IMG/VR virus record: IMGVR_UViG_3300031994_000017
Coordinates: 122,023-150,408 of that record
Length of the DNA stretch: 28,386 nt
Direction: 5' to 3' (one strand)
Source: a virus
Lineage: Duplodnaviria > Heunggongvirae > Uroviricota > Caudoviricetes
Position 1 is the stretch's first letter. Each line of letters opens with the position of its first letter. Of the stretch, positions 5,077 to 19,965 are shown piece after piece. Made by a program: the position numbers and the translations under genes. The notes under the pieces are model-generated. The model did not search any database, was not told where the DNA came from, and saw nothing but the letters and a program-made list of their open reading frames with translations.

Positions 5077-5563
5077 ATATGGGGGAACAGCTTTTACATA
5101 AATATATGAATATTTAGCATAAAAAATTGCGTGAAATGGGCCAAACAATCGGAACTTTCAGGTGATAATGCGGCCATATGCGAACATGCGATTGGCCCAA
5201 TCGGGTGTAAGCTCAACTTGTAATTTCGGGAAAACGCATATGCGTTCTCACTTTCAACATTTTGTGCGGCCATATGGTAAGAGGTTGCGTGCGCGGGATT
5301 TCGGGCCTTCGCCTGCGTCTGCGGCCCGATGAGTTGACATAATTCGGGATTATGTAGACCGGCCCCTAAATGAGAATATAGACAATTACAAATCAGAGGT
5401 GGCTTCTCAGTCCAAAAACGGCGCGCTACGATAGAAAGCGCGCCGGCCAAAAAATTTTGGGAAATTGAGCTAAATTTAGATAAATTTATATTTTGGTCAA
5501 TAAATGCTAGTGGCCTTAGTCTGCGGAAATTCGAGACTACACGAGCAGTCCCGGCGCTTGCGG

Positions 5564-5683
5564 TTAGCACCAATCAGTGGGTAATTTGCCGCAAAAATCA
5601 CGCAATACGCATTTGCCGCAATCTTCAGCATTCAAACAAGTAGCTAACAATTGAAGCAAAGCTTTCACCAATTCACTAGGCAT
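5564..5683 (-). CDS. small Cys-rich peptide (39 aa)
   Basis: MPSELVKALLQLLATCLNAEDCGKCVLRDFCGKLPTDWC*; GAGGTG RBS; promoter 5722-5750; not in ORF track. Confidence 0.7.
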   Translation of the reverse strand: MPSELVKALLQLLATCLNAEDCGKCVLRDFCGKLPTDWC

Positions 5684-5771
5684 TTATAAATTCACCTCAA
5701 CTTTATTTATTTTCTATATATATTATACAAAAAATTTTTATAAAAATCAAATGAGGGGCGCTAGCCCCTCA

Positions 5772-6050
5772 TTAAGCATGATAGATTTTACCATCTACTA
5801 CATAGATGATAGACTCTATTCCATCATAGTCGTGGATTTCCCAGTCGGTAGTATTGTCCGGGATTTCTACCACATGTAATTCCGCGTAATCACCATTTGC
5901 GTCTTTCCCAAGAGTTTCAACAACTTTTACGAGATTAGGATTATAGCGGGCAAGCTCATCGGCGTCCCAGTAATCCGCCAGACCAAGCTTTTCTGCCGCA
6001 ACCTCAGATACCTCAAAACCACCAAAGCACTTATTGAGAACAAACTTCAT
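5772..6050 (-). CDS. phage hypothetical protein
   Basis: 92 aa, AAAGGAG RBS, TAA followed by ATGAGGGGC-TAGC-GCCCCTCAT hairpin. Confidence 0.8.
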   Translation of the reverse strand: MKFVLNKCFGGFEVSEVAAEKLGLADYWDADELARYNPNLVKVVETLGKDANGDYAELHVVEIPDNTTDWEIHDYDGIESIIYVVDGKIYHA

Positions 6051-6210
6051 TTTTATTATCTCCTTTCATTTGCGCACGAATATAATTGATTTCTTCTTCT
6101 GTTAAACTTTCATATTCTTCTTTGACTTCTAGGTCTTGACAATAAGGTGGATAAAATACATCTGGATACGTTACCATCCAAATGGTTAACCGATGAAATT
6201 TGGTCCTCAT
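6031..6210 (-). CDS. hypothetical protein (59 aa)
   Basis: MRTKFHRLTIWMVTYPDVFYPPYCQDLEVKEEYESLTEEEINYIRAQMKGDNKNEVCSQ*; AAAGGAG RBS; first gene after promoter 6241-6269; not in ORF track. Confidence 0.65.
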   Translation of the reverse strand: MRTKFHRLTIWMVTYPDVFYPPYCQDLEVKEEYESLTEEEINYIRAQMKGDNKNEVCSQ

Positions 6211-6265
6211 TTTTATTGTCTCCTTTCATTTGGTATCTTAATTATACCACGCGGAAGGGCTTTTG

Positions 6266-6700
6266 TCAAGCCCTTTTCCGCAAAATCTCAAAAATTTTTT
6301 CAGGAGTATACGCTGTGCCAGTCCAATCTTTGCGGACGGCCTCGCAATCGTCAAAGAGAATGTCTTCGTCAGATGCGAATAATTCTTTAGGATAGCCATA
6401 GGGAACAATATGGATTTCATTGAACCTAACGCTAGGGAGATGTTTCCGCAACCATTTTCTTTTAGCTTCCATTACATCTTGATTGTAAGTAGCGCTTCCG
6501 CCCTTGCTAGTCCAAGAGATAATACCAATGTTAATTCCGGAGCGCTGGGCCGCATTAAGTAGGCGGGCCAAGGTGGCGAAGTGAAGCAAAGGCTTTGCGT
6601 CAATATAGGGGCTGGGGTCACTGTTCCGCAATTTCGGGAGCCAGTTTTCTACACCATAGAGATCAGCGATTGTGCCGTCCATGTCAAAGTAAATAGTCAT
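6266..6700 (-). CDS. HAD-superfamily phosphatase (5'(3')-nucleotidase-like)
   Basis: Motif I FDMDGTIADLY, motif II IISW, motif IV ILFDD; own promoter 6746-6774. Confidence 0.85.
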   Translation of the reverse strand: MTIYFDMDGTIADLYGVENWLPKLRNSDPSPYIDAKPLLHFATLARLLNAAQRSGINIGIISWTSKGGSATYNQDVMEAKRKWLRKHLPSVRFNEIHIVPYGYPKELFASDEDILFDDCEAVRKDWTGTAYTPEKIFEILRKRA

Positions 6701-7298
6701 TTTTTTCTCCTTTCTTTTGGAGAGTTTCTCCCTCTCTGTGATTGTATTATATCATATCTTGAACTATTTGTCAAGTATTTTTTTAAGTAACCCCCTCAAA
6801 AAAGTCTCTTGCCGTGGCGCTCACTACGACCTAATAAAGTGTATCTGTTGCCCTTGGCTCACCTTTTTCTGTTGGGGGGAGTATCCTTCCCATTCTTGCC
6901 CCGCCAGGGAAATACTCAAAAGGCGTGCGGGCTACTTTCTTAAATCTAAAAGTAATAAAACTTTACCTGCTTTATCCGCTTTTTCAGTGTTTGAAAAATG
7001 GTTTGGGGGCAACATTATCCATAAAATGTCATCCAATCTGCTTTTTTGATACTCGCAGGAGCAGATGGGTTCAACCTCCACAGTCCCAAGTTCATGGCGC
7101 CCTTCCCTCGGAACAATTGTATTATAGCATATGGGGATGAAAATGTCAAGTGTTTTGGGAAAAATTTTTGAAAGAATTTTTATTCACTTTTGCGGATAAA
7201 AATACATAATTTATTGGTTTACATAAAATTCCGGTCGCTTGCGTTGTAAGCGACCGGCCCAGCTTTTGTGTAAAATGACGAAAAATCACCCTGTATCT

Positions 7299-7934
7299 CT
7301 ACAAGGTGATTTCCGCATAGGGAGAGGGAGTGTTGAAATAATATTCAGCGCAAGTGAAAAAATATTCAGTCGGAATATCCATGTCAAAAAATCGGTCATT
7401 CTTGTGAAAGACTTCGGGATAGTCTCTAATAAAGCAGGCCCGTAAATAACTCTCTAGGCCCTCGGCAGGCAGGTCTCCGCAATCCACAATTCCGCAAATC
7501 TTAACCTTGACAATTGGAAAACCGGTTTTCTGATAGCTTGCGATTTCTTGCTTTAAGCGGTCTAGGCAAGAATTAACAGTTGTTCCAATCTTTGTGAAAA
7601 GCGGTTTATTTGCGTCATTATAAAACTTGAAGAAATAGCACTTCTGACTCTTTTTCTTGCTATCCTTGCCTTGTGCGGTTTTCTCATATTTGATAACCAC
7701 ATTTCCCCAATTAATGAGAAAATCATCAAATTTGCTTGTTCTTCTGCGGTTGGTCTTGGGAGGCGTTTCCGCGTATGCGGTCTTGGCTTCATTCATGAGA
7801 TACTTATAGCCGCAATAGTCGGCAATAGTGGAAGCCTTTACGCCGATTTCTTCCGCGATTTCCGCGTAACTTTTTTCTTCAACAAAACGAAGATACAGAG
7901 CCTTTAAGACTCTTTCCTTTTTACTATCAGTCAT
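7299..7934 (-). CDS. N-terminal HTH plus GIY-YIG/T5orf172-like C-terminal domain protein
   Basis: KSYAEIAEEIGVKASTIADY is HTH-like; CYFFKF..FTKIGTT..DRLKQ resembles GIY-YIG/T5orf172; ends at TAG inside a terminator hairpin. Confidence 0.7.
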   Translation of the reverse strand: MTDSKKERVLKALYLRFVEEKSYAEIAEEIGVKASTIADYCGYKYLMNEAKTAYAETPPKTNRRRTSKFDDFLINWGNVVIKYEKTAQGKDSKKKSQKCYFFKFYNDANKPLFTKIGTTVNSCLDRLKQEIASYQKTGFPIVKVKICGIVDCGDLPAEGLESYLRACFIRDYPEVFHKNDRFFDMDIPTEYFFTCAEYYFNTPSPYAEITL

Positions 7935-7960
7935 TTTTTCTCCTTTTGGTGCGTCCCCCG

Positions 7961-8350
7961 CTATTTCTTCGGGGGACGCTTTTCCACAAGTGTTAGCTCA
8001 AAACGCTTTTCACCAACAGCAAAAGCAATCATGCGGTTTTTGTTAGTGATTTCTACGTTTTCGGGTTGGAATGTCGCTTTTTCGGCCATCAAAGTTGCGA
8101 TTTCTGCGACAATTGCTTCTTTCAGTTCGTTGGGCTTGCGCTCTCGGTGAACATCACTTTTGCGCTTATGCGTATCTACGTTAGCATATTTTTTAGCTCG
8201 CTTTTCTTCTTCGGGTGAGAAGTCAAAGTAAACACGCTTGCCGGAGTCAATTGCTTCATCCTCTTGGATAATATCAATTGCTTCTTCCCTAGAGCAATCA
8301 AGTGATTTCATCAATTCCGCAATCCGTCTTTCCTTTTGATTTGCGGTCAT
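7961..8350 (-). CDS. hypothetical protein, paralog of 9606-9965
   Basis: 129 aa, AAAGGGG RBS, promoter 8377-8405; TAG stop in the loop of GCGTCCCCCG/CGGGGGACGC hairpin. Confidence 0.8.
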   Translation of the reverse strand: MTANQKERRIAELMKSLDCSREEAIDIIQEDEAIDSGKRVYFDFSPEEEKRAKKYANVDTHKRKSDVHRERKPNELKEAIVAEIATLMAEKATFQPENVEITNKNRMIAFAVGEKRFELTLVEKRPPKK

Positions 8351-8434
8351 AGGTGTTTCCCCCTTTCGTTGGTTTTATTATAGCACCTTTTCCGCCATTT
8401 GTCAAGAGGTTTTTCAGATTTTTTGTGGGGAGGC

Positions 8435-8809
8435 TTACGCCTCCACCACAATCTGATAGAAGATATGATTCTTGCTCACAACCCTAGCCACCTTATTATC
8501 AGCGACAAGGTCCCTCATAAGGAAAGTCACCTTCGGGCCAGTCAGCCCAGCATCGGGAATGAGAACCTTTGCGATTGTGTCGGAGGAGTAAAGAGTCTCC
8601 GGCTCCATAGCAGAGAGAATATCCGCACGAAGGCCAGCGTCTGTTTCTCTCTTTGCGGTCTGGGCCTTGGTAGGCTTACGCTCCGCAGAATTACGTCTAA
8701 TGGTCACATCACGAAGCTGGACAAGCTTCTCCTGGACTTCGCCCTCAGTGCGGTCAATGGCAACATTCAGAGCGTCCACATAGGTCATCTTCTTAGTAGC
8801 AGTAGTCAT
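8435..8809 (-). CDS. probable winged-helix DNA-binding protein, paralog of 10022-10393
   Basis: 124 aa, AAAGGA RBS, own promoter; C-terminal LYSSDTIAK..GPKVTFLMRDLVADNKVARV..FYQI has a wHTH pattern. Confidence 0.8.
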   Translation of the reverse strand: MTTATKKMTYVDALNVAIDRTEGEVQEKLVQLRDVTIRRNSAERKPTKAQTAKRETDAGLRADILSAMEPETLYSSDTIAKVLIPDAGLTGPKVTFLMRDLVADNKVARVVSKNHIFYQIVVEA

Positions 8810-8904
8810 AGTATCAATTCCTTTCTGGTTTATTGGGTTTTCCTTCCCTTGATTACGCTCTTATTATAACATACTTTTTGAAGTTTGTCAAGAGGGAATT
8901 TCAA

Positions 8905-9360
8905 ATTTCTTTGAAATTTTTTAGCAATACGCGAGAAGTCCTGTCGCCTATCTTCTTATTTTACCGAGGCGCGACCATCGGAAGGAATTTGCCGCGCCCT
9001 CTTGACATTGCTATTATAGCACATTTTGTGCTGTTCGTCAAGGGGTTTCTGAAAAAAATCTCTAGAAAATTTTTTTCATCCTCGTGCGTTCCTATGAGAG
9101 TCATCTATCTCAATCTTATAACCGCTTTAGGTCTATTGCGACTTCCAACCGCCGCCCCACACCAAAGAAGTGGCTCAGAGGTATCTCCCCTTGACATTGA
9201 CATTATAGCACATTGTGTGCTATTTGTCAAGGGGTTTTTCAAAAAATTTTTGAAAAAGTTTTTTCGTTACCGAGTATCCAAAACCAAGAGAGCCCTTTGG
9301 GACTTTTATCTCTTGCCCCTTGACATTGATAGTATAGCACATTTACATCCAAAAGTCAAG
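8905..9360 (-). ncRNA. three tandem promoter-driven ORF-less units (candidate small RNAs)
   Basis: Promoters at 9013-9041, 9202-9230 and 9331-9359 are each followed by NNCAATGTCAAGRGG and 70-130 nt of hairpin-rich sequence with no RBS-ATG ORF. Confidence 0.45.
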
Positions 9361-9454
9361 AAGTATTTTTATACATTTTAATGAATATTCATACGTTCAT
9401 CAAAACGCACAATTCCGGGAGAAAAAATAATTGAAAATTTGTTGATTTTGCCTA

Positions 9455-9520
9455 TTGACAAAAAGCTGAGGGTGTGGTATAATGGAATTTCCGGCCGCCC
9501 CGCGTGTAAGCGGCCGGTCG
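9455..9520 (+). promoter_or_regulatory. antisense promoter plus GC hairpin module
   Basis: GCCTATTGACA-17-TATAAT (TG extended), then AATTT-CCGGCCGC/GCGGCCGG stem, then CGATGAA. Confidence 0.7.
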
Positions 9521-9605
9521 ATGAATATTTATACATTTTTATGTATAAATATTCAACGCATACAAAATGAATGAATATTCACCAGAGTGAATATTCATTC
9601 GTTGA

Positions 9606-9965
9606 CTATTCGGATTTTGCGGGGCGGTGTTTGGTGAGTTTCAGCGTATAGGTCGCGCCATCAAACGCGAATAGGATTTCCGTTTCAGTTTTCATTTCCA
9701 AGACTTCTGCCCCGGCACCCTCAAGCGGTATCCTACAAAGGTTCAAAATGCGCTTTTTCGTTTTATCAACTTTTCGCTCACGCTTTACCGGTGTAGCCTG
9801 CTTGCGCTCTGCGCGTCTCGCCTTTTTTGCGCCAGCTTTGCGGTCTTCGGGCAACTCATAAAGTTTTGCGCCTCGGTCGATTTCTTTGTCTTCCTCAATG
9901 ATTTCTAGGGCTTCCGCTTCGCTAATGTTCAGCGTATCCATGAGCTTTTTAACCTGTGCGGTCAT
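9606..9965 (-). CDS. hypothetical protein, paralog of 7961-8350
   Basis: 119 aa, AAAGGAG RBS; shares LM..L..S..EA..II.ED..ID.G and ER..RK..K; TAG stop. Confidence 0.8.
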   Translation of the reverse strand: MTAQVKKLMDTLNISEAEALEIIEEDKEIDRGAKLYELPEDRKAGAKKARRAERKQATPVKRERKVDKTKKRILNLCRIPLEGAGAEVLEMKTETEILFAFDGATYTLKLTKHRPAKSE

Positions 9966-10021
9966 GGGTTAATCACTCCTTTTTTGAGTAGGGCGGGGAT
10001 TGCTCCCCGCCCCTTGGGGAA

Positions 10022-10393
10022 TTACGCAAGGGAGTAATAAACCTTGCGCTTATCGGTGGTCTTGCTCACCTTGCCCTCGGCAACCAGTCCCCGCATAAGG
10101 TAGGAAACCTTGGGCGCAGACAGACCAAGAGAAACCACAGTCGGCAGATTCTTTGCGATTTCATCAGACGAATACAGGGTACCGGGCTCCATCTCGGAAA
10201 GGATAGCGGAGCGGATTTCGGCGTCCTGCGCCTTCTGTTCTACCTGCTTCTTGGTGGGCTTGCGCTCGGCAGTGTTGCGCTTGATGGTCTGGTCACGAAG
10301 CTGAATCAGCTTCTCCTGAACCTCATCGGAGGTCACAGCAATGGCGGCATTCAGAGCGTCAACGTAGGTCATCTTCTTGGTGGAATTAGTCAT
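10022..10393 (-). CDS. probable winged-helix DNA-binding protein, paralog of 8435-8809
   Basis: 123 aa; first 18 residues 15/18 identical to paralog (MTNSTKKMTYVDALNAAI); tandem promoters at 10467-10495 and 10558-10586. Confidence 0.8.
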   Translation of the reverse strand: MTNSTKKMTYVDALNAAIAVTSDEVQEKLIQLRDQTIKRNTAERKPTKKQVEQKAQDAEIRSAILSEMEPGTLYSSDEIAKNLPTVVSLGLSAPKVSYLMRGLVAEGKVSKTTDKRKVYYSLA

Positions 10394-10623
10394 GGTATCA
10401 AATCCTTTCTTGCGGTAGGTCGCAACCCATTTTTTTATTTTTTGTTTTATCCCCTTGGGACACCCTTATTATATCATATCCAAATCAGCTTGTCAAGTGT
10501 TTTTTTCACTTTTTTCAAACTTTTTTGGTTTTTCGGGGTTTCCCTTTGGAGTGTCTTTATTATAGCAAATTTTTCCGCATTTGTCAAGAACTTTTTTTAT
10601 TTTTTTTGAGGAATTATGGGGAG

Positions 10624-11367
10624 TTATGCTCCCCATAATTCAATAATGTATCGCTTAATTCGCTCTTCTTCTGGCTCAGGCACTTTTACACTTGAAAACT
10701 CTTTCTGAAAAACGCCTTTGCGCATCGGCTTTTTCTGTTTGATACAATAGGCGAGAATTTCCTTTTCAATTAGCACATCTTCAAGCCCTGTGTGATTTTC
10801 TACAAAATCGGGGTTTTTAGTAATGTATCTGTAAAGGATTTCTGCGGTCTTGCGAGGATTGCCATTTTTCAGTAAATAGTCATGCTCTGCGCAAAAATGC
10901 TTGTATGTCGGCATTTTACACATAACATCTTGCGCCATTCTCATTGTGTCCCAAATCTCAAACCCATAAGGGAAAAAGTATCTGTATTTGCTCCCAGTCA
11001 AAAAGCGTTGAGTGGTATTCAAAGCGTTCAAATCAAATCTTGCGTTATGAGCGCAAACAGTATTACAATTGAAACGCTTACAATCACGGATGAAAATTTG
11101 TCTCGCATACTTGAAAGAAATGATTTTCCGCTTTCCGCTTTCTATATCTTCCAAATACTGAGGAATTTTTTCCGCATAATAGGCGGTCTGCATTAGGTCG
11201 TGTTCCTTACAAAAAATATCAGAGATAAGATAGGAACGTGAACAATACACATTTCCTCTTTTGTCTACAATAGCCCATCCCAAGTCATATACTAGGCTAT
11301 CTTCAAGTCCATTTGCCGTCTCGGTGTCAAGGACGGCAATATACTTTTTTCTGCGGTCAATGGTCAT
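10624..11367 (-). CDS. DEDDh 3'-5' exonuclease (DnaQ/RNase T-like)
   Basis: ExoI VLDTET, ExoII AHNARFD, ExoIII HTGLED; own promoter 11424-11452. Confidence 0.85.
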   Translation of the reverse strand: MTIDRRKKYIAVLDTETANGLEDSLVYDLGWAIVDKRGNVYCSRSYLISDIFCKEHDLMQTAYYAEKIPQYLEDIESGKRKIISFKYARQIFIRDCKRFNCNTVCAHNARFDLNALNTTQRFLTGSKYRYFFPYGFEIWDTMRMAQDVMCKMPTYKHFCAEHDYLLKNGNPRKTAEILYRYITKNPDFVENHTGLEDVLIEKEILAYCIKQKKPMRKGVFQKEFSSVKVPEPEEERIKRYIIELWGA

Positions 11368-11583
11368 TTTTAATTCCTTTCTGCGGTGGGGTGTATCTTC
11401 ATTTCCCCATCAGCGCAAGGCTATTATATCATACTTGGCCGAGAATGTCAAGCACTTTTTTCGAATTTATAAATATTCATTCGGTTGTATATTTATTCAT
11501 CGTTTTGTGCGGAAAAGTTGGGAATTGTGCAACATACACAATTCCGGGATTTTTAGAGACTGAAAATTTGTGTAAATTGCCTA

Positions 11584-11646
11584 TTGACAAATTCTGAATG
11601 ATGTGGTATAATGAAAATTTCGCCCGCCATGTCCCATGGCGGGCCG
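11584..11646 (+). promoter_or_regulatory. antisense promoter plus GC hairpin module
   Basis: GCCTATTGACA-17-TATAAT (TG extended), then AATTTC-GCCCGCCATG/CATGGCGGGC stem, then CGATGAA; homologous to 9455-9520. Confidence 0.7.
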
Positions 11647-11680
11647 ATGAAAACTAAAGGGAGTGAGCGCACTCACCCCC

Positions 11681-11914
11681 TTAATCAAATTCAAAGTTGT
11701 CCCAATCTTCGACATAAACCTCCGAATACTCAGGGTTTTCATAGTATTTAGGAACGATACCCGCATCTCGCAGCTCAGAAAATGCATGACGGAAGTTGTC
11801 AATGAGTTTTTGACGCTTAATTCTTCTGCGTCGTTGCTGTTCTTCATAAAAAATGTTGATAGTGGCCACAATTTCTTCATCAGCCATGGCAGAAGCCATT
11901 TTTTCAAAATCCAT
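11681..11914 (-). CDS. hypothetical protein (77 aa)
   Basis: Start moved to MDFEK (AAAGGAG RBS), own promoter, TAA. Confidence 0.75.
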   Translation of the reverse strand: MDFEKMASAMADEEIVATINIFYEEQQRRRRIKRQKLIDNFRHAFSELRDAGIVPKYYENPEYSEVYVEDWDNFEFD

Positions 11915-12011
11915 TTTTTTTATCTCCTTTGTTTTTGTATCTACATTATAACACATCAAAATCATTTTGTCAAGCGTTTTTTGAAAAATTTTTTGTTTAG
12001 GCGCGAACCCC

Positions 12012-12227
12012 TTAGGGGTTCAGCGCCATCATATCTTCGGCATAGCGTCCGGGTTCAAAACATTTTGCCTCGTCAATTAGTGAACCAAAAACATCGGGGT
12101 AAGCGTCAACCTCAAAATCTTCATGGTGAGTATCGGCTTTGAAAAGTTCTTCGGCAATGGCGCAGGCTTCTTCATAGGTTTCAGCTTCCACATTTTGATA
12201 GATGGTAACTCTTGTTTCCCAAAGCAT
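12012..12227 (-). CDS. hypothetical protein
   Basis: 71 aa, AAAGGAG RBS, own promoter, TAA in loop of GCGCTGAACCC/GGGTTCGCGC hairpin. Confidence 0.75.
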   Translation of the reverse strand: MLWETRVTIYQNVEAETYEEACAIAEELFKADTHHEDFEVDAYPDVFGSLIDEAKCFEPGRYAEDMMALNP

Positions 12228-12274
12228 TTTTATTATCTCCTTTCTTTTGTATCTACATTATATCATACTTTTAA

Positions 12275-12433
12275 TCATTTGTCAAGAGTTCTTTTGAAAA
12301 TTTCTCTTGTTCCATTTCTCCAAACAGAAAAATCATCCATTTTGGCTTTTTCTGCTTTTTCATAGGAAGAATAAACACCTAAGATTTGAGTTGCTCCGCT
12401 TTCCCAAGTTTCTACTACGACATAAACAGTCAT
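12275..12433 (-). CDS. hypothetical protein (52 aa)
   Basis: MTVYVVVETWESGATQILGVYSSYEKAEKAKMDDFSVWRNGTREIFKRTLDK*; AAAGGAG RBS, own promoter; not in ORF track. Confidence 0.7.
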   Translation of the reverse strand: MTVYVVVETWESGATQILGVYSSYEKAEKAKMDDFSVWRNGTREIFKRTLDK

Positions 12434-12486
12434 TTTTTTATCTCCTTTGCTTTTGTATCTGTATTATAGCACATTTTTTGCCTCTG

Positions 12487-12657
12487 TCAAGTAGAATTTT
12501 CATTTTCTTCCCAATACGCAGGCGCGCTTTCTACATCTTGTCCACAATTAGGATAAAAAGGACAGTTGACACATTCAGAAAAAGGAATATTTTCACAAGC
12601 CTCTCGCATCAGGTATAAACCCTCTCGCATCTGTTCAATATACTTTTGATTAAGCAT
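12487..12657 (-). CDS. small Cys-rich protein (56 aa)
   Basis: MLNQKYIEQMREGLYLMREACENIPFSECVNCPFYPNCGQDVESAPAYWEENENST*; AAAGGAG RBS, own promoter; not in ORF track. Confidence 0.7.
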   Translation of the reverse strand: MLNQKYIEQMREGLYLMREACENIPFSECVNCPFYPNCGQDVESAPAYWEENENST

Positions 12658-12744
12658 TTTAGTAGCTCCTTTCTTTTTTGTATCTACATTATATCACACA
12701 AAGTATTATTTGTCAAGAGTTTTTTTGAAAAAAGGGAGGAAATT

Positions 12745-12969
12745 TTATCCTCCCATCATTTCCTTATACTTATTTTTTCTTTTCTTTTTAAAGGTTTTGG
12801 CATCAAATTCTTTGGCTTCATAAAAGTCAAAATAAAGTCTTTCTCCGAATTCAAATTCCTGATATTTAAAATATGAATGATGCTTCATTGCTTCTTCAAG
12901 AGAGGGATAAATATAGCTAACATCAGTGTCTTCCCCGAAGCCGTCAACCCATTCCAAAATAGCAATCAT
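12745..12969 (-). CDS. hypothetical protein (74 aa)
   Basis: True start MIAILEW (AAAGGAG RBS, promoter 13005-13033); the longer track ORF runs through the promoter. Confidence 0.75.
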   Translation of the reverse strand: MIAILEWVDGFGEDTDVSYIYPSLEEAMKHHSYFKYQEFEFGERLYFDFYEAKEFDAKTFKKKRKNKYKEMMGG

Positions 12970-13060
12970 TTTTGTTATTCTCCTTTCGTTTCTTTCTGGG
13001 TGTATTATAGCACACTTTTCCACCTTTGTCAAGCATTTTTTTAATTTTGGTGAGGATTTT

Positions 13061-13276
13061 TTAATCCTCACCAAAACCATAAACGATATTGCCAGAACTA
13101 GTGAACAGAAGAACGCCAAAGGGGCAAGGGTCGTTCTCATCAACAGGCTCTTCCCACCAGTAAATTGCTTTACGGCGCGCTTTTGCGGCATCAATGAAGT
13201 GCTCAAACTCTTTACGCGCAACCTCACGTCCATCGGTGAGGTCATAGACGGCAACAATAAAATTAACAGTAGGCAT
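13061..13276 (-). CDS. hypothetical protein
   Basis: 71 aa, AAAGGA RBS, own promoter, TAA in hairpin. Confidence 0.75.
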   Translation of the reverse strand: MPTVNFIVAVYDLTDGREVARKEFEHFIDAAKARRKAIYWWEEPVDENDPCPFGVLLFTSSGNIVYGFGED

Positions 13277-13335
13277 GATATTGATTCCTTTCTTTGTTTT
13301 TTGTGATTACATTATATCACATTTTTTCGTTCTTG

Positions 13336-13485
13336 TCAAGGGTTTTCTATTTCTTTTTTTCTATGTTTTTCATGACGCTTAAAAGAACCTTTACCCTTTT
13401 TTGCGCGAACAGTAGAACCTCTGCGCCTAAAGGCTAGGTAATCTTGAAGCTCTTGTCCGCTTTTCTTTAGGTATTCTTTATTCAT
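13336..13485 (-). CDS. arfA: ArfA-like alternative ribosome-rescue peptide (49 aa)
   Basis: MNKEYLKKSGQELQDYLAFRRRGSTVRAKKGKGSFKRHEKHRKKEIENP*; FRxR...KKGKGS(F/Y)xRxxKH matches the ArfA core (E. coli [21 protein letters not shown]); GAGAGGT RBS; promoter TTGACT-17-TATAAT 13516-13544; not in ORF track. Confidence 0.75.
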   Translation of the reverse strand: MNKEYLKKSGQELQDYLAFRRRGSTVRAKKGKGSFKRHEKHRKKEIENP

Positions 13486-13524
13486 TTCTTATTACCTCTC
13501 TCATTTGGTAGCTTTATTATAGCA

Positions 13525-13758
13525 TCATTCATACAAAAAGTCAAGATATTTTTCAGCGTAGGTATAAATTTTTGCCGCGATTTTTCTTGGTAAAATATAA
13601 TAGCAGAAGTGGCCATTCTCTTTAGAAAAAGTGCCACGCCAGCCGAAAAACCAATTCCACCAAAAGGGTTTAGCTTCGCAATACAGCTCAGCCAATTTTA
13701 CAAGCGGCATTTCATAATCATCATAACGGATTTTTGTGTAGTTAAAAAGAGTATACAT
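13525..13758 (-). CDS. hypothetical protein (77 aa)
   Basis: Start moved to MYTLFNY (AAAGGA RBS), promoter TTGACA-17-TATACT; 3' end overlaps the promoter of the ArfA-like gene. Confidence 0.7.
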   Translation of the reverse strand: MYTLFNYTKIRYDDYEMPLVKLAELYCEAKPFWWNWFFGWRGTFSKENGHFCYYILPRKIAAKIYTYAEKYLDFLYE

Positions 13759-13946
13759 GATATTAGTTCCTTTCTTTTTGTGATTATAGTATAGCATAGA
13801 TTAAGGTCTTTGTCAAGTGTTTTTAGGAAAAAATTTCAAAGAATTTTTATTCAATTTTTTGTATAAAAATTTACTAATAGTCTATTGGTGTAGAATTTCC
13901 TCGCGCCTGGTCCGTAGGCGCGAGGGTCAAAGGAAAAGGTGGTTTA

Positions 13947-13988
13947 AAAAATGGGGCAGCTTGGTAGAAAGGTAGACCAAACTGCCCC
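13947..13988 (-). terminator. intrinsic terminator of the tRNA-Lys unit
   Basis: GGGGCAGTTTGGT-loop-ACCAAGCTGCCCC followed by ATTTTT on the minus strand. Confidence 0.65.
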
Positions 13989-14024
13989 GGGGCCAAAAGG
14001 AAGGAGAACAACAAAGGAAACGTG

Positions 14025-14100
14025 TGGTGCGTCCGGGGAGATTCGAACTCCCGACCCACAGATTAAAAGTCTGTTGCTCTACCATCTGAGCTACGGGCGC
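14025..14100 (-). tRNA. trnK: tRNA-Lys (anticodon TTT)
   Basis: GCGCCCG TA GCTC AGATGGTA GAGC A ACAGA CTTTTAA TCTGT GGGTC GGGAG TTCGAAT CTCCC CGGACGC A CCA; full cloverleaf, encoded CCA, one C4:A69 mismatch; own promoter. Confidence 0.95.
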
Positions 14101-14203
14101 ATTTCTCTTACCTTCTATATATATTATAGCAAATTTTTTTCAAAAAGTCAAGTAGAAATTTCAAAAAATGAAACGAATTTTCTGGAAGATTTGGAGTGAA
14201 AAA

Positions 14204-14524
14204 TCACTCCAAATCATCATCATTCAAGAAAGCCCTCATGGGTGAAATGAAAAGTTCTTTCATTCTCTTAATATAGAGCTGGATAATCCTGTCAACTGTT
14301 TCCTCAGGAGTGAGAGCAGAGACATCCTCTTCATCCCAAGGGAACTGATAAGTTTCTACATATCCATTTTCAGAACCGCTAGTATATTCGTGGCAGGCGA
14401 CATCTCCGATTGTCCAAGGGAAACGGATTTGTGCCCCACCCCAGCAATCATTAACTTCATTAGGGATACCATAAAAGTCCAGCTTGTCAGACATGGCGGC
14501 GATACGCTCGTTGTAAGTATTCAT
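14204..14524 (-). CDS. phage hypothetical protein (106 aa)
   Basis: Start moved to MNTYNERI (AAAGGAG RBS, promoter 14559-14587), TGA in hairpin. Confidence 0.75.
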   Translation of the reverse strand: MNTYNERIAAMSDKLDFYGIPNEVNDCWGGAQIRFPWTIGDVACHEYTSGSENGYVETYQFPWDEEDVSALTPEETVDRIIQLYIKRMKELFISPMRAFLNDDDLE

Positions 14525-14606
14525 TGTTGTTGTCTCCTTTGTTTTATTTTGTATCTTAATTATACACCATCTTTTGCGACTTGTCAAGGGGTTTTCAAAA
14601 AGTTTT

Positions 14607-14780
14607 TTAATTATTTTTTGCGGGTTCGATATTCATAGCACAAAAATAGGGTCTTGCTCCTGCGGCCTCACAGATTTTTTCCCACTGATAATACAGATGA
14701 CTAAATTCTGCTTCTGCTTCTTCTTCACTATTGGCTTTAATTTTAAGCCAGCTATCAAAGTCTACATAATAAGTTTTCAT
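14607..14780 (-). CDS. hypothetical protein (57 aa)
   Basis: MKTYYVDFDSWLKIKANSEEEAEAEFSHLYYQWEKICEAAGARPYFCAMNIEPAKNN*; TAATG-coupled to upstream gene; not in ORF track. Confidence 0.7.
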   Translation of the reverse strand: MKTYYVDFDSWLKIKANSEEEAEAEFSHLYYQWEKICEAAGARPYFCAMNIEPAKNN

Positions 14781-14995
14781 TAACTTCTTTCCCCTTTCAT
14801 CGCCGCGGCAAAGTCAAGAAATTTTGCCACAAAAACGTCATCTTCCAAGTAAAAGGGGTCTGCTCCATACCACAGTGCGAAGTTGGACATAAGCTGCATG
14901 AAGCGCAGGTCGGGGAAATCCTCACGCCATACACGCTGTATAACAGAACTAACAGACACAATTCTACCAGGATTTCTCATTTTTCTATCTCTCAT
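14780..14995 (-). CDS. phage hypothetical protein (MRNPxRI...PDLRFxQL...DPFYLED type)
   Basis: Start moved to MRDRK (AAAGGAG RBS), own promoter. Confidence 0.75.
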   Translation of the reverse strand: MRDRKMRNPGRIVSVSSVIQRVWREDFPDLRFMQLMSNFALWYGADPFYLEDDVFVAKFLDFAAAMKGERS

Positions 14996-15092
14996 TTTTT
15001 TATCTCCTTTCATTTTCTATAATTATTATACCATAATTTTTCCAAAAAGTCAAGAAGTTTTTTTATTTTTTTTATTTTTATGATTGGGAAGC

Positions 15093-15326
15093 TTAAAGCT
15101 TCCCAATCAATTCAGGCTCGTGTGCTTCATTCCGCCAAGAGTCAGGCCACTGTTTGTACAGCTCTTTACTTCCCCTATGGTAGACATAATAATAGCCATC
15201 ACCACCACAGGGATAAATCAAAAAACGGTCTCCCAGTAAATTGACGCTAATGCTATTGATAAGCTCCATATCTTTAGTTAAAACTGTAAAGGTGTCAAGA
15301 ACTTTCGTAAAATCGCTAGGCCACAT
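15093..15326 (-). CDS. hypothetical protein
   Basis: 77 aa, AAAGGAG RBS, own promoter, TAA in hairpin loop. Confidence 0.75.
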   Translation of the reverse strand: MWPSDFTKVLDTFTVLTKDMELINSISVNLLGDRFLIYPCGGDGYYYVYHRGSKELYKQWPDSWRNEAHEPELIGKL

Positions 15327-15411
15327 TGTTTTATTCTCCTTTCTGTTGGTAGCTTTATTATAGCATATTTCTTTTGGTTTGTCAAGAACTTTTTTGGTAG
15401 CTGGACACTTT

Positions 15412-15621
15412 TTAATAAGTGTCCAGCCCCATCATTTCAGCGGTTGCGTAGCTTACCCGACCATAGCATTCAAGATTGACATCGGGGAAATTTTCCTTTG
15501 CGATGCGCAGGGCTTCTGCTTTTGCGCGGTCCATAGCCTCGTATACTTCAACGAAGAATTCCTCTCCGTCCAGCTCGCTGTCCTCATCCTCTATTGCGAA
15601 CCACCAGGTTGTGCGTCTCAT
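15412..15621 (-). CDS. hypothetical acidic protein (69 aa)
   Basis: Start moved to MRRTTWW (AAAGGAG RBS), promoter with TATACT -10. Confidence 0.75.
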   Translation of the reverse strand: MRRTTWWFAIEDEDSELDGEEFFVEVYEAMDRAKAEALRIAKENFPDVNLECYGRVSYATAEMMGLDTY

Positions 15622-15811
15622 AGTGTTTAGCTCCTTTCCTTTTGTGATTATAGTATACCACATTTTTTGCGATTTGTCAAGAGGTTTATGGGAGAAAATT
15701 AAAAAAATTTTTGGCGCTAGCTTTCAACGCGGAAATTTGCAGACAGAGGTTCCACCGAAAATGCCGCGCGTTTCGCTTGATAACGCGCGGCTCAAAAAAC
15801 CGATGACCGCC

Positions 15812-16180
15812 TCAGCAGTCATCGGTATAGCACCCCAGATAGGGGTCAAAGCCCATATCCTCATTGAACGAGGGCTCAGAGAGGTGGGAGTCGGGGCACT
15901 CATCACCATAGGGACAGAGATCACAAATGCCATCACATTCATCATTCTCTTCGTTGGTGTGCCAACCATCGGCGACATTGTCCCGATAGTTCCAGACCAC
16001 TTCACCAGTAGTCGCATCAACTACTGTCACATCGGTGGCGAAAGTAACTTTGTGCTGGAACTGGTCGCCAATGTGGAGCGCGCAGGTGATAATTACATCA
16101 AGATTGACAACAGTTGCGTCAAATTCCGCAACAGGGGTATCGCTAGGAAGAACGTAAATGTAATGAGAAGGGTATTCCAT
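15812..16180 (-). CDS. hypothetical acidic protein with C-x3-C-x2-C-x5-C cluster
   Basis: 122 aa, AAAGGAG RBS, own promoter; ECDGICDLCPYGDECPD. Confidence 0.75.
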   Translation of the reverse strand: MEYPSHYIYVLPSDTPVAEFDATVVNLDVIITCALHIGDQFQHKVTFATDVTVVDATTGEVVWNYRDNVADGWHTNEENDECDGICDLCPYGDECPDSHLSEPSFNEDMGFDPYLGCYTDDC

Positions 16181-16266
16181 TTTTTATCTCCTTTCCTTTT
16201 GTATCTTTATTATAGCACACTTTTGGTCAGTTGTCAAGAGTTTTTTTAAAAAAAAAGGAAGATTTT

Positions 16267-16413
16267 TCAATCTTCCTTATAAGTGAGGTTCATTAAATTT
16301 TCTTCTCTGCCATCACGAGTATCAACTAAATAGATACCCAGCGTTTCACATTCTTCTAGCGCCGCCCAGAGTCTCTGAATAGCGTGTTCCTTAATTTCTT
16401 CGTAAGTTTTCAT
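16267..16413 (-). CDS. hypothetical protein (48 aa)
   Basis: Start moved to MKTYEEIK (GAAGGAG RBS), own promoter, TGA in hairpin. Confidence 0.7.
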   Translation of the reverse strand: MKTYEEIKEHAIQRLWAALEECETLGIYLVDTRDGREENLMNLTYKED

Positions 16414-16524
16414 TTTTATTATCTCCTTCCCTCTTTCTGATGTTATTATAGCACATAGTTTTAGGATTGTCAAGAGTTTTTTTGAAAAAATTGCGGTCGG
16501 GTTAAAAGCGGAGTTACCCTCCGC

Positions 16525-16647
16525 TTATTTCTTCCGTGTGTATCTAATAACATAGAGTGGGATAATCCCAAAGAGGAACCAGCCCTTATAATGATACACA
16601 GTCAGACCAAGCCTCTTGTACTTAGTCCATTCTCGGCGGATAATCAT
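16525..16647 (-). CDS. small basic/hydrophobic peptide (40 aa)
   Basis: MIIRREWTKYKRLGLTVYHYKGWFLFGIIPLYVIRYTRKK*; ATG directly after TAA of upstream gene; followed by AAGCGGAG/CTCCGCTT-TT terminator; not in ORF track. Confidence 0.7.
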   Translation of the reverse strand: MIIRREWTKYKRLGLTVYHYKGWFLFGIIPLYVIRYTRKK

Positions 16648-16854
16648 TTATTTTTCCTCCTTGTCCTCATGGTAATAATCGAATCGTCGCAGGTATTCAA
16701 TATCGTTTTGCATAGCATGTTTCAGCAGGTCGGCGGTAGTCCCATAGGTTTGGGCAATGTCTTGATGTCCGCTTATAATGTGTTCATCCCAATAAGCGGC
16801 TCTTTCTCTAAACATTCGCAGACACATTTCCAAGGCAGTTTCATTCTTATTCAT
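16648..16854 (-). CDS. hypothetical protein
   Basis: 68 aa, AAAGGAG RBS, own promoter. Confidence 0.75.
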   Translation of the reverse strand: MNKNETALEMCLRMFRERAAYWDEHIISGHQDIAQTYGTTADLLKHAMQNDIEYLRRFDYYHEDKEEK

Positions 16855-16944
16855 TTTTTATCTCCTTTGTTTTTCTTTCTGTCTGTATTATAACATGTTT
16901 TGTCCGGTTTGTCAAGTGTTTTTTTTATTTTTTTTGTGGGGCTA

Positions 16945-17142
16945 TTAAATCAAGCCCCACCAATACAGATTCAGCGTAAGGTCAAAACCAACGCTAAGCA
17001 CAGAAATAATGATTATGCTGAGAACCTTTTCGATCAGAAGGCTTGTCTCATCATTCACGCAACAGACAATACCAAGAGCAACAACACCGAGGAAAATGAC
17101 GCTGGTGATGATAGTAAAAAGAATGTTCTCCATTTTTTCCAT
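16945..17142 (-). CDS. small two-helix membrane protein (65 aa)
   Basis: Start moved to MEKMENIL; two hydrophobic segments; own promoter. Confidence 0.7.
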   Translation of the reverse strand: MEKMENILFTIITSVIFLGVVALGIVCCVNDETSLLIEKVLSIIIISVLSVGFDLTLNLYWWGLI

Positions 17143-17231
17143 TTTTTTAATTCCTTCCCGGTTTGGTGGGTTTTCCTTCCCTCTTTCTGATGTTATTATA
17201 GCACATAGTTGCGGGAATGTCAAGAGTTTTT

Positions 17232-17402
17232 TTAAAGTTCCCAACCTTCTGGAAATTCATCATTATATTCTTCATGAACAGAAATCAGATAATACTCATC
17301 GGGGTTGAAGCGATTCAGAACCATAGCATCAGCATAAGAATAGCCATAAATCCGGTCAATTTCGCCAGTAGCCTTTTTCTGAATAACGTAAGAATAATAC
17401 AT
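17232..17402 (-). CDS. hypothetical protein (56 aa), paralog of 21727-21864
   Basis: Start MYYSYVI (AAAGGAG RBS); IYGYSYADA motif. Confidence 0.7.
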   Translation of the reverse strand: MYYSYVIQKKATGEIDRIYGYSYADAMVLNRFNPDEYYLISVHEEYNDEFPEGWEL

Positions 17403-17578
17403 AGTATTGTCTCCTTTCAATTTCGGGGGGTGTCTCCCTCTCTGTGATTATAGTATAGCACATAGTTGCGGGAAAGTCAAGTATTTTTTTGAAAAAATAT
17501 AAAATAATTTTTATACAAGTATACAGTATATTTATACAAAAACCGGGGTCTACGCTCGTTCCAATTTTCATTTCAAAA

Positions 17579-17663
17579 ATGAAAAATAAAATGAAACGAA
17601 AAGCAAAGCAAGGTGAAATGAAAATAAAAAGAAAATGAAATGAAAATGAAATGAAAATGAAAA
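17579..17663 (+). repeat. ATGAAA microsatellite-like run
   Basis: About eight ATGAAA copies, tandem at 17635-17663. Confidence 0.6.
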
Positions 17664-17673
17664 CCCTTGTGCT

Positions 17674-18108
17674 TTAAACAAGGGTTTTCAGTGTTCTTAA
17701 AAGTTCGCTTGCGGGAAAAGCTTTTCCTGTCCACGCGGTCAAGTGCCTTTGTTCATCATCAAAGAGAATATCATTTCCGCCATTAACATTGTTTTTTACG
17801 AACGCATAAGGGACGAACCGCATTTCATCAAAGTGAACGCTGGGTAAGTGTTCAGTCAACCATTCACGCTTTGCTTCAATAACAGCTTTGTCATATTCCG
17901 CATTGCTTCCTTTGGACAGTGCGCTCACGATACAGATTTTATATCCCTTGCGCTGTCTGTTATTCAAAAGCCTTGCCAAAGTCGCCATGAGGACCAGTGG
18001 CTTTGCGCTGCGGTAGGGCTCGGGATTGAAATTCCGCAGTTTAGGAAGCCAATCTTTTACAGAATACAAGTCCGCGATAGTTCCATCCATGTCCAGCCAA
18101 ATCTTCAT
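17674..18108 (-). CDS. HAD-superfamily phosphatase, paralog of 6266-6700
   Basis: LDMDGTIADLY, IVSA, ILFDD; AAAGGAGG RBS; own promoter. Confidence 0.85.
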   Translation of the reverse strand: MKIWLDMDGTIADLYSVKDWLPKLRNFNPEPYRSAKPLVLMATLARLLNNRQRKGYKICIVSALSKGSNAEYDKAVIEAKREWLTEHLPSVHFDEMRFVPYAFVKNNVNGGNDILFDDEQRHLTAWTGKAFPASELLRTLKTLV

Positions 18109-18233
18109 TTTTGTATCCTCCTTTTGTCTCTCTTTCTATTGGTATTATATCATACTTTTCAGTTGGTGTCAAGTGTTTTTTTCATTTTTTTTTACACTTG
18201 ACACCAATTTTTATTTACTTCTATTTCTTTTGT

Positions 18234-18548
18234 CTAGGGCTGGTTTTTAAGATAGCCCACGTTAGAAATTATCTTGTGGTAAAGTGCTCTGGGGATCTTA
18301 TTTCCTGTGCTCTTGTAGAGGGCTGTGATTTTATCAATAGAACCAATAAAGGCTGTGATAACTGTATTATCTTCTGTTGACTGAACAATTACTACGCCAG
18401 TAGTAGTTACTATTTCCATTCTTGAGGGAGCGTTAAGACTTGGAGCGCTCATGCACGGCTCACCCAGCCCAATAGTATCAATGATATATTCAAGTCTATC
18501 ATACCTGTCAATGCTAGCGTGGGTGCTCATGTTTCTTCTGATTTTCAT
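18234..18548 (-). CDS. hypothetical protein
   Basis: 104 aa, AAAGGA RBS, own promoter; ends at TAG. Confidence 0.75.
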   Translation of the reverse strand: MKIRRNMSTHASIDRYDRLEYIIDTIGLGEPCMSAPSLNAPSRMEIVTTTGVVIVQSTEDNTVITAFIGSIDKITALYKSTGNKIPRALYHKIISNVGYLKNQP

Positions 18549-18646
18549 AGTATCAATTCCTTTCTTTTTCTCTTGATTACATTGATATTATATCATACCT
18601 TTTGCCGCTTGTCAAGAGAGTTTTTTAAATTATTTTTATTTTTTTA

Positions 18647-18721
18647 TGGCGGGGCAAGTTGGATTTGAACCAACCCCTCTGAGTGGTACCACTTCTCAGC
18701 CACACACCAGTGCTCTGCCCC
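18647..18721 (-). ncRNA. tRNA-like RNA or pseudo-tRNA with 11-nt anticodon loop
   Basis: GGGGCAG/TTGCCCC acceptor stem, G73, encoded CCA, T-arm GTTGG-TTCAAAT-CCAAC, CTGAG/CTCAG stem enclosing AAGTGGTACCA, reduced D arm; own promoter 18757-18785. Confidence 0.7.
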
Positions 18722-18826
18722 ATGTGTTGTTGTTTATCTCTCTTGCTTACATTGACATTATAGCATACTTTTTATTACTTGTCAAGAGTTTTTTTTAATT
18801 ATTTTTAGGAAAAATGGAAGAAGGTT

Positions 18827-19033
18827 TTAGCCTTCTTCCATGATAAAAACTGTTGCGGCAAAAGTGCCTACACAAAGAGCAAACACAAGGAGCCCCAAAG
18901 TAAGGCTTTTCCCCGTGGCAAGACACACCAAGATACAAAGACCATAGGCAGCCCCAAAGAAGAAGCCAAATACCAATACGGCGACCAACGCAAAGAGAAT
19001 ATAAGGAAGTGCTGTGTAGAAAATCTTTTTCAT
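18827..19033 (-). CDS. small membrane protein (68 aa)
   Basis: Start moved to MKKIFY (AAAGGA RBS); two hydrophobic helices; own promoter; hairpin at stop. Confidence 0.75.
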   Translation of the reverse strand: MKKIFYTALPYILFALVAVLVFGFFFGAAYGLCILVCLATGKSLTLGLLVFALCVGTFAATVFIMEEG

Positions 19034-19230
19034 AGTTATTGATTCCTTTCTTTTTTCTATAATTATTATACCATAATTTTTCCAATTTGTCAAGAAAAAT
19101 TTTGAAAATTTTTCCAAAAGATTTCGGGAAAATGTGCCATAAGGCCGGCATAAGTGCGACCGATTGCCAATATAGCTAGAGCCTTATATATCGTGAGATC
19201 GGGTCGCCACGCCCCCTGGCGACCCGGCGG

Positions 19231-19927: not shown

Positions 19928-19965
19928 ATTTGTCAAGTGTTTTTTGAAAAAAAGAAGAAGATTTT

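Follow-up and report, generated by a model that had tools for sequence, protein, structure and literature searches.

Evenly spaced GC-rich hairpins of one family most likely mark transcription-block boundaries in the early region of a code-15 gut phage

What might be the role of a GC-rich hairpin that returns roughly every 2 kb through the early region of a phage genome? The question is raised by the uncultivated gut phage recorded in IMG/VR as IMGVR_UViG_3300031994_000017, of which we analysed the window formed by the last 28.4 kb of the 150,408-nt genome (28,386 nucleotides, positions 122,023 to 150,408 of the record). A preliminary description of this window, made from its sequence, had listed seven such hairpins. 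All seven are present where they had been placed, and they fold with 8-10 perfect GC-rich pairs and a folding free energy (dG) of -15.9 to -21.2 kcal/mol on either strand. We conclude that they most likely mark the boundaries between transcription blocks. They are listed here in window coordinates, with their scores under R1, a covariance model built from 58 copies found in related phages and five from the window.

HP1, 5419..5445, motif on the plus strand: 9-bp stem with a dG of -17; R1 score 41.5 bits; minus-strand tail TTTTTGG.
HP2, 7231..7257, motif on the plus strand: 36.8 bits; 23 nt past the terminator at 7281-7314 (minus sense) and 81 nt from the -35 of the promoter at 7121-7149.
HP3, 9491..9517, motif on the plus strand: 38.2 bits; abutted by the plus-strand consensus promoter at 9455-9483, whose -10 ends 7 nt ahead of the stem.
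HP4, 11622..11644, motif on the plus strand: a 23-nt variant outside the training set, 21.4 bits; abutted by the plus-strand promoter at 11584-11612, whose -10 ends 8-9 nt ahead of the stem.
HP5, 13899..13925, motif on the plus strand: 40.7 bits; after a tRNA-Lys unit and the terminator at 13953-13988, and 82 nt from the -35 of the promoter at 13788-13816.
HP6, 15763..15791, motif on the plus strand: a 29-nt variant outside the training set, 40.2 bits; 7 nt past the terminator at 15799-15826 and 82 nt from the -35 of the promoter at 15652-15680.
HP7, 19200..19226, motif on the plus strand: 29.9 bits; directly after the stop of the open reading frame (ORF) at 19231-19446 on the minus strand, 4 nt past the stop codon, without a primary terminator and without a minus-strand T-tail.

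These hairpins belong to a single family that extends well beyond this phage. We scanned 80 related IMG/VR loci, fetched via a neighbouring sigma-like gene (55-65% protein identity), and the perfect GC hairpins in them showed a sharp length peak, 90 of the 210 being 27 nt long against roughly 10-20 at the neighbouring lengths. The 63 distinct 27-mers align without gaps, giving the consensus AAAWT, stem arm C-S-G-S-S-C-G-Y, loop, stem arm R-C-G-S-S-C-S-G, CCRAA, with a loop that often contains G.CCGT. Stem pairs 6-22 and 7-21 are invariant in these 63 copies, and C-G and G-C alternate freely at pairs 2-26, 4-24 and 5-23; changes on both sides of a pair account for 137 cells versus 51 in shuffles, the covariation score is 0.59 versus 0.14, and 95.8% of the cells are paired, versus 69% in shuffles and 30-43% when the partners are slid by 1-3 columns. 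Since the aligned copies were chosen for perfect stems the percentage paired is partly built in, whereas the length peak and the both-sided changes are not. Judged from this alignment, the pairing of the hairpin is under selection, and the compensatory change from T-A to C-G that had been noticed between the hairpins at 7231 and 9491 is visible in it.

When R1 was run on the whole genome it returned exactly the seven hairpins at E<=1e-4 (1e-11 to 9e-5), all on the plus strand, and no further match below E 0.01 in the window or in the whole genome; the other GC hairpins of the window, at 7951, 9991, 20289 and 22911, are not members of the family. The reverse strand of the seven sites scores only 8-15 bits, so that it is the flanks and the loop that give the element its polarity. 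In the relatives we obtained 174 R1 matches in 59 loci, on one strand throughout and in every case within ~9 kb upstream of the sigma-like gene, and the five related whole genomes (G001 to G005, 123-196 kb) hold 4-15 copies each, again on one strand and within about 12-14.5 kb. There the copies sit inside a block of host-type early promoters and are absent from the other ~90% of every genome. A covariance model and a search of related phages had been proposed as the check on the array, and by that check the hairpin is kept in five of five related genomes. No hairpin matched an Rfam family, CRISPR repeat families included, either at the gathering threshold or at E<=1.

The surroundings of the hairpins are those of a region crowded with promoters. 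Perfect TTGACA-17-TGnTATAAT promoters, preceded by T/A tracts, number about 31 on the minus strand between 6.2 and 19.1 kb, and the same pattern finds only four further matches in the remaining 122 kb. Each of these early promoters precedes one or two small ORFs led by a Shine-Dalgarno (SD) sequence, or a tRNA-Lys, or an ORF-less unit, and repeat-family analysis describes the early region as a dense array of repeated ~40-90-nt promoter cassettes. All seven hairpins lie downstream of minus-strand units, and when the region is read leftward each of HP2-HP6 stands 7-40 nt past a canonical minus-strand terminator, which we call the primary terminator (T1):

T1 before HP2, 7281..7314, minus strand: canonical, with a 15-bp stem followed by TTTTTCGTCATTTTA.
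T1 before HP3, 9569..9600, minus strand: itself made of TGAATATTCA boxes.
T1 before HP4, 11657..11682, minus strand: an A.C mismatch on the plus strand is a G.U pair in the minus-strand RNA.
T1 before HP5, 13953..13988, minus strand: after the tRNA-Lys, a stem followed by ATTTTTT on the minus strand.
T1 before HP6, 15799..15826, minus strand: a 12-bp stem followed by TTTTTTGA.

The three hairpins with a distance of 81-82 nt to the -35 of the next promoter (HP2, HP5 and HP6) lie within homologous cassettes, and the distance is longer for HP3 and HP4 (~130-170 nt) because a plus-strand promoter module intervenes. A fixed distance is also seen in G001, where 59-60 nt separate hairpin and -35 in four of nine mapped copies, and where six of ten mapped hairpins qualify as canonical terminators, each closing a ~1-kb operon.

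The sequence that follows the stem differs between the two strands. Across the 52 copies found in six genomes, the first 8 nt after the stem contain on average 3.83 T on the minus strand versus 1.56 on the plus strand; at least five T are found in 17 of the 52 on the minus strand versus none on the plus strand, and at least four on the coding strand in 32. With such a polarity the flanks agree with termination on the coding strand and not on the other. In the window itself the longest minus-strand T-runs after the stems of HP1 to HP7 are 5, 4, 2, 4, 2, 4 and 1 nt, and a terminator scan calls only HP2 on the minus strand, so that the hairpins had been described as lacking a U-tail with some reason: the window tails are indeed weak, although the minus-strand T-runs that reach 5, 4, 4 and 4 go beyond that wording. 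The stems, by comparison, show no such asymmetry. Among the ordinary hairpins of the same regions single mismatches are G.U pairs in the coding-strand RNA 32 times versus 5 the other way, whereas stems of the GC family are equally stable on both strands (46 vs 45 by dG), their single-mismatch copies split 2 vs 4, and imperfect copies are too few for a strand test of G.U against A.C. Equal stability on both strands is what use on both transcripts would select, and a role at the level of DNA fits it equally well.

That the opposite strand is also transcribed at some copies is suggested by the promoters that abut them. In the window only two consensus promoters are found on the plus strand within 5-20 kb, and these are the two that run into HP3 and HP4 (such a promoter is called P+ below, and a perfect promoter on the other side of the hairpin P-):

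P+ into HP3, 9455..9483, plus strand: antisense consensus promoter, TTGACA-17-TGnTATAAT, a 12/12 match plus the TG.
P+ into HP4, 11584..11612, plus strand: antisense consensus promoter, with an upstream AAAATTTGTGYAA..CCTATTGACAAA context common to the P+ modules of relatives.

Among the 52 copies a P+ whose -10 ends 6-8 nt from the stem is present in 12, versus a background of 0.2%, and a P- whose -10 ends 2-4 nt from the stem in 8-9, versus a background of 2%; some copies hold both, face to face, and the promoter scores are bimodal. No abutting promoter is found in 35 of the 52, but promoter-less copies in G001 and G005 contain recognisable decayed -10 and -35 remnants, and in relatives that do not have the 27-nt form the same conserved promoter is still followed, at +6 to +8, by a GC hairpin. 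From the P+ of HP3 and of HP4, RNAs that fold into two or three consecutive hairpins are predicted (z -10 and -5). None of the 52 copies has a plus-strand U-tract after the hairpin, and so these two RNAs would continue, in antisense direction, into the convergent gene. The copies without P+ do not have significantly better U-tracts.

Two arrangements seen in the relatives deserve a separate description. At L011 4573, L012 4218 and L013 4980 a GC hairpin and a U-run come after the conserved antisense promoter, a predicted self-contained unit for an RNA of ~45 nt. At L084 (G002) 3880-3960, 6415-6490 and 9043-9120, and at L046 660-790, the hairpin stands between face-to-face consensus promoters whose predicted starts fall at or inside the stem, and these modules form a large imperfect palindrome of ~110 nt (CCTATTGACAA ... 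TTGTCAATAGG). A weak variant in the window, located inside an ORF-poor stretch, resembles the hairpins found after P+ in L012 and L013:

Weak variant hairpin, 5303..5328, plus strand: a 6-bp GGGCC stem with a long loop; R1 score 14.2 bits, E 0.026.
Extended -10 promoter, 5048-5076, plus strand: followed by ~370 nt of ORF-poor, GC-richer sequence that ends at HP1; the 159-aa ORF with a TTG start that covers 5048-5450 on the minus strand is doubtful.

We then analysed the spacing. The gaps between the hairpins are 1812, 2260, 2130, 2278, 1865 and 3436 nt, with a coefficient of variation (CV) of 0.235, and they are more even than expected from uniform placement (P 0.002), from random choice among 31 promoter-upstream slots (P 0.005) and from random choice among 13 terminator-bearing boundaries (P 0.004-0.01). 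Including a hairpin-less variant near 17546 lowers the CV to 0.118, with P at about 1e-4. Significant evenness is also seen in three of the five relatives, G001 with a period of ~1 kb and G002 and G004 with ~2 kb; G005 is borderline, and in G003 the evenness is not significant. The quasi-periodic ~2-kb array announced by the preliminary description is therefore borne out against three null models and in three of five relatives, and an origin of the periodicity in the selection of hairpins was rejected, since R1 separates the seven from other GC hairpins and the three nulls give P 0.002-0.01. The window blocks are 1.65-2.3 kb long despite containing 3-8 ORFs and 3-8 promoters each, and a 2.3-kb insertion or deletion (indel) between loci L041 and L047 carries its own hairpin, so that the spacing is kept. 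The claim that the genes do not explain the array can be upheld in this sense: the array is conserved, even and strand-specific, and its spacing does not depend on how many genes a block holds. Against a universal physical ruler stands the period, which differs two-fold between relatives.

How could these features be combined? The reading that we put forward, tentatively and at somewhat less than an even chance of being right, is that of a boundary cassette resembling the PeSL cassettes of T4-type phages, in which the hairpin would back up termination on the coding strand and, on the other, provide short antisense RNAs with a 5' stem-loop. The window has about 33 consensus sigma-A promoters in an array from which small genes on the minus strand would be transcribed leftward. 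In these leftward minus-strand units a block of 3-8 genes or units would end every ~2 kb in a primary intrinsic terminator, with the 27-nt GC hairpin 7-40 nt further on, and then a fixed AT-rich spacer and the first promoter of the next block. On the coding strand the hairpin and its short T-rich tail would form a second, fail-safe terminator or a 3'-end structure, insulating the blocks from one another. The palindrome being perfect, RNA made from the opposite strand would fold in the same way. At copies that adjoin a consensus promoter (HP3, HP4 and a third of the clade copies) transcription is predicted to start 0-3 nt ahead of the stem, and the hairpin would then form a stem-loop at the 5' terminus of a short non-coding RNA, complementary to the 3' end of the convergent gene. 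Stem-loops at the 5' terminus stabilise mRNAs of Bacillus subtilis, and in Firmicutes they protect from decay that depends on the 5' end.

Several observations weigh against the boundary cassette. The 35 promoter-less copies mean that the role as a 5' hairpin is not general. The U-tracts of the window are poor, and three of the seven hairpins would not count as intrinsic terminators. Five hairpins are already preceded by a good terminator, a situation in which a fail-safe role predicts weak selection, and despite this their outer 8 pairs are almost always perfect Watson-Crick pairs; the family also does not share the coding-strand G.U bias of the ordinary terminators nearby. Finally, nothing in the model requires an even spacing regardless of gene number.

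The best of the alternatives is a product of the plus strand. The modules would then be very small genes, with a strong promoter and a 5' GC hairpin, each encoding a short and abundant hairpin or antisense RNA that serves as a regulator, a decoy or an early-gene silencer, and the promoter-less copies would be decayed or weakly transcribed. The geometry of promoter and hairpin, fixed and highly enriched, suits such a gene, as do the upstream context of the P+ modules, conserved throughout the clade, the constant polarity of loop and flanks on the plus strand, the promoter remnants in G001 and G005, and the relatives without the 27-nt form that keep a GC hairpin after the promoter, with a U-run in L011-L013. 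We nevertheless consider it unlikely, since the stems remain perfect in the 35 copies that have no usable promoter (five of the seven in the window and 14 of the 15 in G001), a plus-strand U-tract follows in 0 of 52, the inner-pair G.U counts favour the plus strand only weakly and not significantly (33 vs 21), and Rfam offers no matching family.

A DNA-level element, whether a single-stranded DNA hairpin or a cruciform recurring every 1-2 kb, could be where priming, primosome loading or nicking takes place, or could absorb supercoils or act as a topological barrier. The preliminary description had leaned towards loading, nicking or priming on DNA; its array is real, conserved, evenly spaced and strand-specific, but no test pointed to those functions, and every contextual feature that was found is transcriptional (block ends, promoter distances, T-tails, abutting promoters, and confinement to the host-promoter early region in genomes of 120-196 kb). 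The fixed distances to promoters and terminators likewise point to transcription, and no nuclease, primase or binding protein was linked to the sites in this analysis. Even spacing independent of the number of genes or promoters speaks for a DNA element, as do the even arrays of the relatives, but the period of those arrays (~1 kb in G001, ~2 kb in G002 and G004) differs two-fold and provides no common physical ruler. The confinement of the copies to one strand, the maintenance of spacing by the hairpin within the L041/L047 indel, and stems that are near-perfectly Watson-Crick and equally stable on both strands, unlike the RNA terminators nearby, can also be counted in its favour; the elements are, however, absent from the other ~90% of each genome, unlike sites for replication or packaging priming or nicking. 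GC palindromes in AT-rich flanks resemble the contexts of cruciform extrusion, and REP/BIME palindromes bind gyrase in E. coli, but a central spacer of 7-11 nt is long for extrusion. On balance a DNA-level element is quite unlikely. Very unlikely, too, is a spacing-dependent device of the DNA or chromosome, in which the hairpins would delimit torsional or priming domains in a hyper-transcribed early region and face-to-face promoters would load RNA polymerase as a barrier; if true, it would be an undescribed way for a phage to manage ~30 consensus promoters in 13 kb.

The weakest candidate, a recombination cassette of the kind proposed for PeSLs, in which early blocks would be gained, lost and exchanged through the repeats, with the hairpin as an ordinary terminator carried along by the cassette and the spacing as a by-product of unequal crossing-over, draws on the dense array of repeated ~40-90-nt cassettes, on block indels with ~50-nt junction overlaps between close relatives and on copies forming one sequence family, which suggests spread by duplication, but is highly improbable given that the L041/L047 breakpoints lie ~500 nt from the hairpins in another repeat, that stems differ within a genome while pairing is kept, indicating long-term structural selection and not recent copying, and that the abutting promoters would be left unexplained. 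At that indel, the one examined among three pairs compared, ~50 nt are shared at the junction (L041 5043-5095 vs L047 2162-2214 and 4506-4558), an overlap that fits recombination between repeated cassettes.

Besides the hairpins there are TATWCA/TGWATA boxes, with 85 occurrences versus 43.6 +/- 6.3 expected. They cluster around HP3, to the left of HP4, in the hairpin-less modules and at 22.2-22.4 kb (14 in 22196-22412), and the HP3 cluster, previously put at about ten boxes in 9370-9600, holds 12, part of which forms both a perfect AT palindrome and the primary terminator itself. The box features are:

Cluster of 12 TATWCA/TGWATA boxes round HP3, 9370..9597, no strand assigned: includes the perfect AT-rich palindrome at 9522-9555.
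Three TATWCA boxes left of the HP4 module, 11474..11499, no strand assigned.
Hairpin-less module variant, 17506..17559, plus strand: three boxes, then AAAAACCGGGG.., and no 3' arm; repeat families D14/D15; no R1 match.
Box module with a short degenerate GC hairpin, 19822..19875, plus strand: repeat families D14/D15.
Further copies of the D14/D15 box module, 20639-20692, 21603-21656, 22304-22336, 22645-22690 and 23476-23529.
19-nt box TTGTGYAAAATGACGAAAA, 7266..7284, plus strand: the genome has only two further copies, both inverted, at 23397-23415 and 23446-23464.

Here too the earlier reading was accurate. The inversion of the 7266 box at 23397 and 23446 was confirmed, the three sites being the only ones in the genome, and its 17-nt core is present in 10 loci of relatives; the related boxes seen at 19.8, 20.6, 21.6, 22.3 and 23.5 kb are the D14/D15 families, and the hairpin-less variant placed near 17540 is the module at 17506-17559. 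Relatives have box types of their own beside the hairpins, TGCATAATTATGCA in L068, TTGTGCAA in L018 and L041, and TGAATAATTATTCA in L044, and such phage-specific types suggest co-evolving DNA-binding regulators. Two other repeats lie close by. At 23597-23804, the right edge of the early array, four tandem copies of ~50 nt with TTTAGTAAA(A)TTTAGTAAA boxes stand in an iteron-like arrangement beside the two inverted 19-nt boxes, with similar boxes at 21540-21590, and AATGAAA-type heptamer repeats fill 17573-17657, between the terminator at 17658-17690 and the hairpin-less module.

The rest of the early region and the genome can be described briefly. There is an overlap of 127 nt between the two ends of the assembly, and in IMG/VR the record is placed in the class with direct terminal repeats. 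The phages closest to it in the databases are ~140-kb Enterococcus phages (37% protein identity) and code-15 gut phages, and the nearest named relative is phAss-1, filed under 'code 15 clade', which has one weak hairpin copy (E 0.035). A megablast search against phage records for cultured relatives with transcript data gave no match, and a distant search with the full P+/hairpin/P- module returned only promoter-like pieces in Enterococcus phages and in the metagenomic phAss-1. A Pfam search with ten early proteins identified one sigma-70 region-4 helix-turn-helix (HTH) protein and two NT5C-like paralogs, and no obvious candidate for a hairpin-binding protein or nuclease among the ten. Further features of the region are:

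ORF, 7299-7934: N-terminal sigma-70 region-4 HTH.
Two paralogs of 144 aa, 6266-6700 and 17674-18108, minus strand: weak NT5C-like 5'-nucleotidase matches.
Stretch at 6775-7113, minus strand: ~340 nt after the promoter at 7121-7149 with no credible ORF before the next promoter and no Rfam match; it may be a non-coding RNA.
Three tandem consensus promoters, 8990-9360: each within a CCCCTTGACA...TGTCAAGGGG palindrome and driving a short ORF-less unit.
Four cassettes of ~160 nt, 19703-21114 (repeat families D8 and D11): a TATAAT box with a GTCCCAATAATTGGGAC-type palindrome replacing the -35; they appear to be a second promoter class.

The interest of the boundary element lies first in the phages that carry it, an abundant and uncultivated clade of TAG-recoded gut and rumen phages whose organisation of early gene expression is at stake. 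A portable element of ~110 nt, consisting of the hairpin, optional face-to-face promoters and operator-like boxes, would divide a dense promoter array evenly, and could be useful for genome annotation and possibly as an insulator part for synthetic biology in Firmicutes. Its combination of strand-symmetric perfect stems, constant orientation and even spacing whatever the gene content does not fit the standard picture of a terminator.

Does any known system look the same? Four were tried and rejected. RNase III sites, as in T7 and SP82, need ~20 bp or more of double-stranded RNA, often interrupted by an internal loop, and the stems have 8-10 bp; hairpin promoters of the N4 type have a 5-7-bp stem and a 3-nt loop, and six of the seven loops measure 7-13 nt (no search was made for the giant virion RNA polymerase gene that goes with them); integron attC sites, imperfect palindromes with R''/R' cores and extrahelical bases that end promoter-less cassettes, are excluded by cassettes that carry their own promoters and by a consensus with no GTTRRRY-type cores (no integrase search was made); and CRISPR-repeat mimics are excluded by the sequence diversity among copies.

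The REP/BIME elements of enterobacteria are closer: they too are GC-rich palindromes outside genes, lack U-tails and stand at the 3' ends of transcription units, and roles in mRNA 3' protection and gyrase binding have been proposed for them. REP elements are, however, chromosomal, spread genome-wide, nearly identical, present in both orientations and linked to RAYT transposases, whereas the present hairpins occupy one phage region in one orientation with stems that have diverged and covary. The promoters of HP3 and HP4, which start 0-3 nt before a stable hairpin, recall the 5' stem-loops of Bacillus ermC and aprE and the OOP RNA of lambda, and the predicted transcripts are, like antisense RNAs of the OOP type, antisense into the 3' end of the convergent gene; unlike these systems most of the present copies have no promoter, and the RNA here is a predicted one. 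Tandem intrinsic terminators share two serial stem-loops at the 3' end of a unit, very strong promoters, a second stem that is GC-rich and very stable, and T-enrichment on the coding strand only. They differ in that the U-tract in the window is short or absent, that no coding-strand G.U bias is seen, and that hairpin and flanks form a conserved family.

A literature search on promoter-hairpin, convergent-promoter or evenly spaced terminator arrays in phages found only the papers on PeSL cassettes, which are composites of a stem-loop and a near-consensus early promoter in T4-type phages (Arbiol et al. 2010, PMC2839356; Comeau et al. 2014, PMC4122927). These papers describe the PeSL stems as short, of the G/C or A3-4G3 type, and mention no convergent promoters and no even spacing (PMC2839356, PMC4122927). 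Both systems place a repeated intergenic stem-loop just upstream of a near-consensus early promoter of host type that has an AT-rich upstream region and is followed by an SD and a start codon. In both, the flanking genes are small and of unknown function, the early region is plastic, some copies are degraded, and close relatives differ by block indels. The present phage belongs to another lineage and host phylum, a code-15 gut phage with extended -10 promoters of Firmicute type; here only about one promoter cassette in five carries a hairpin, and this is of the defined 27-nt family, in which CG/CG positions are invariant and the polarity is constant; a separate primary terminator is usual, the spacing is even, and promoters abut a third of the copies. 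Since the nearest database phages are Enterococcus and code-15 gut phages and not T4-like myoviruses, the present element is not a PeSL by descent, but it works like one, and the PeSL is the closest known kind.

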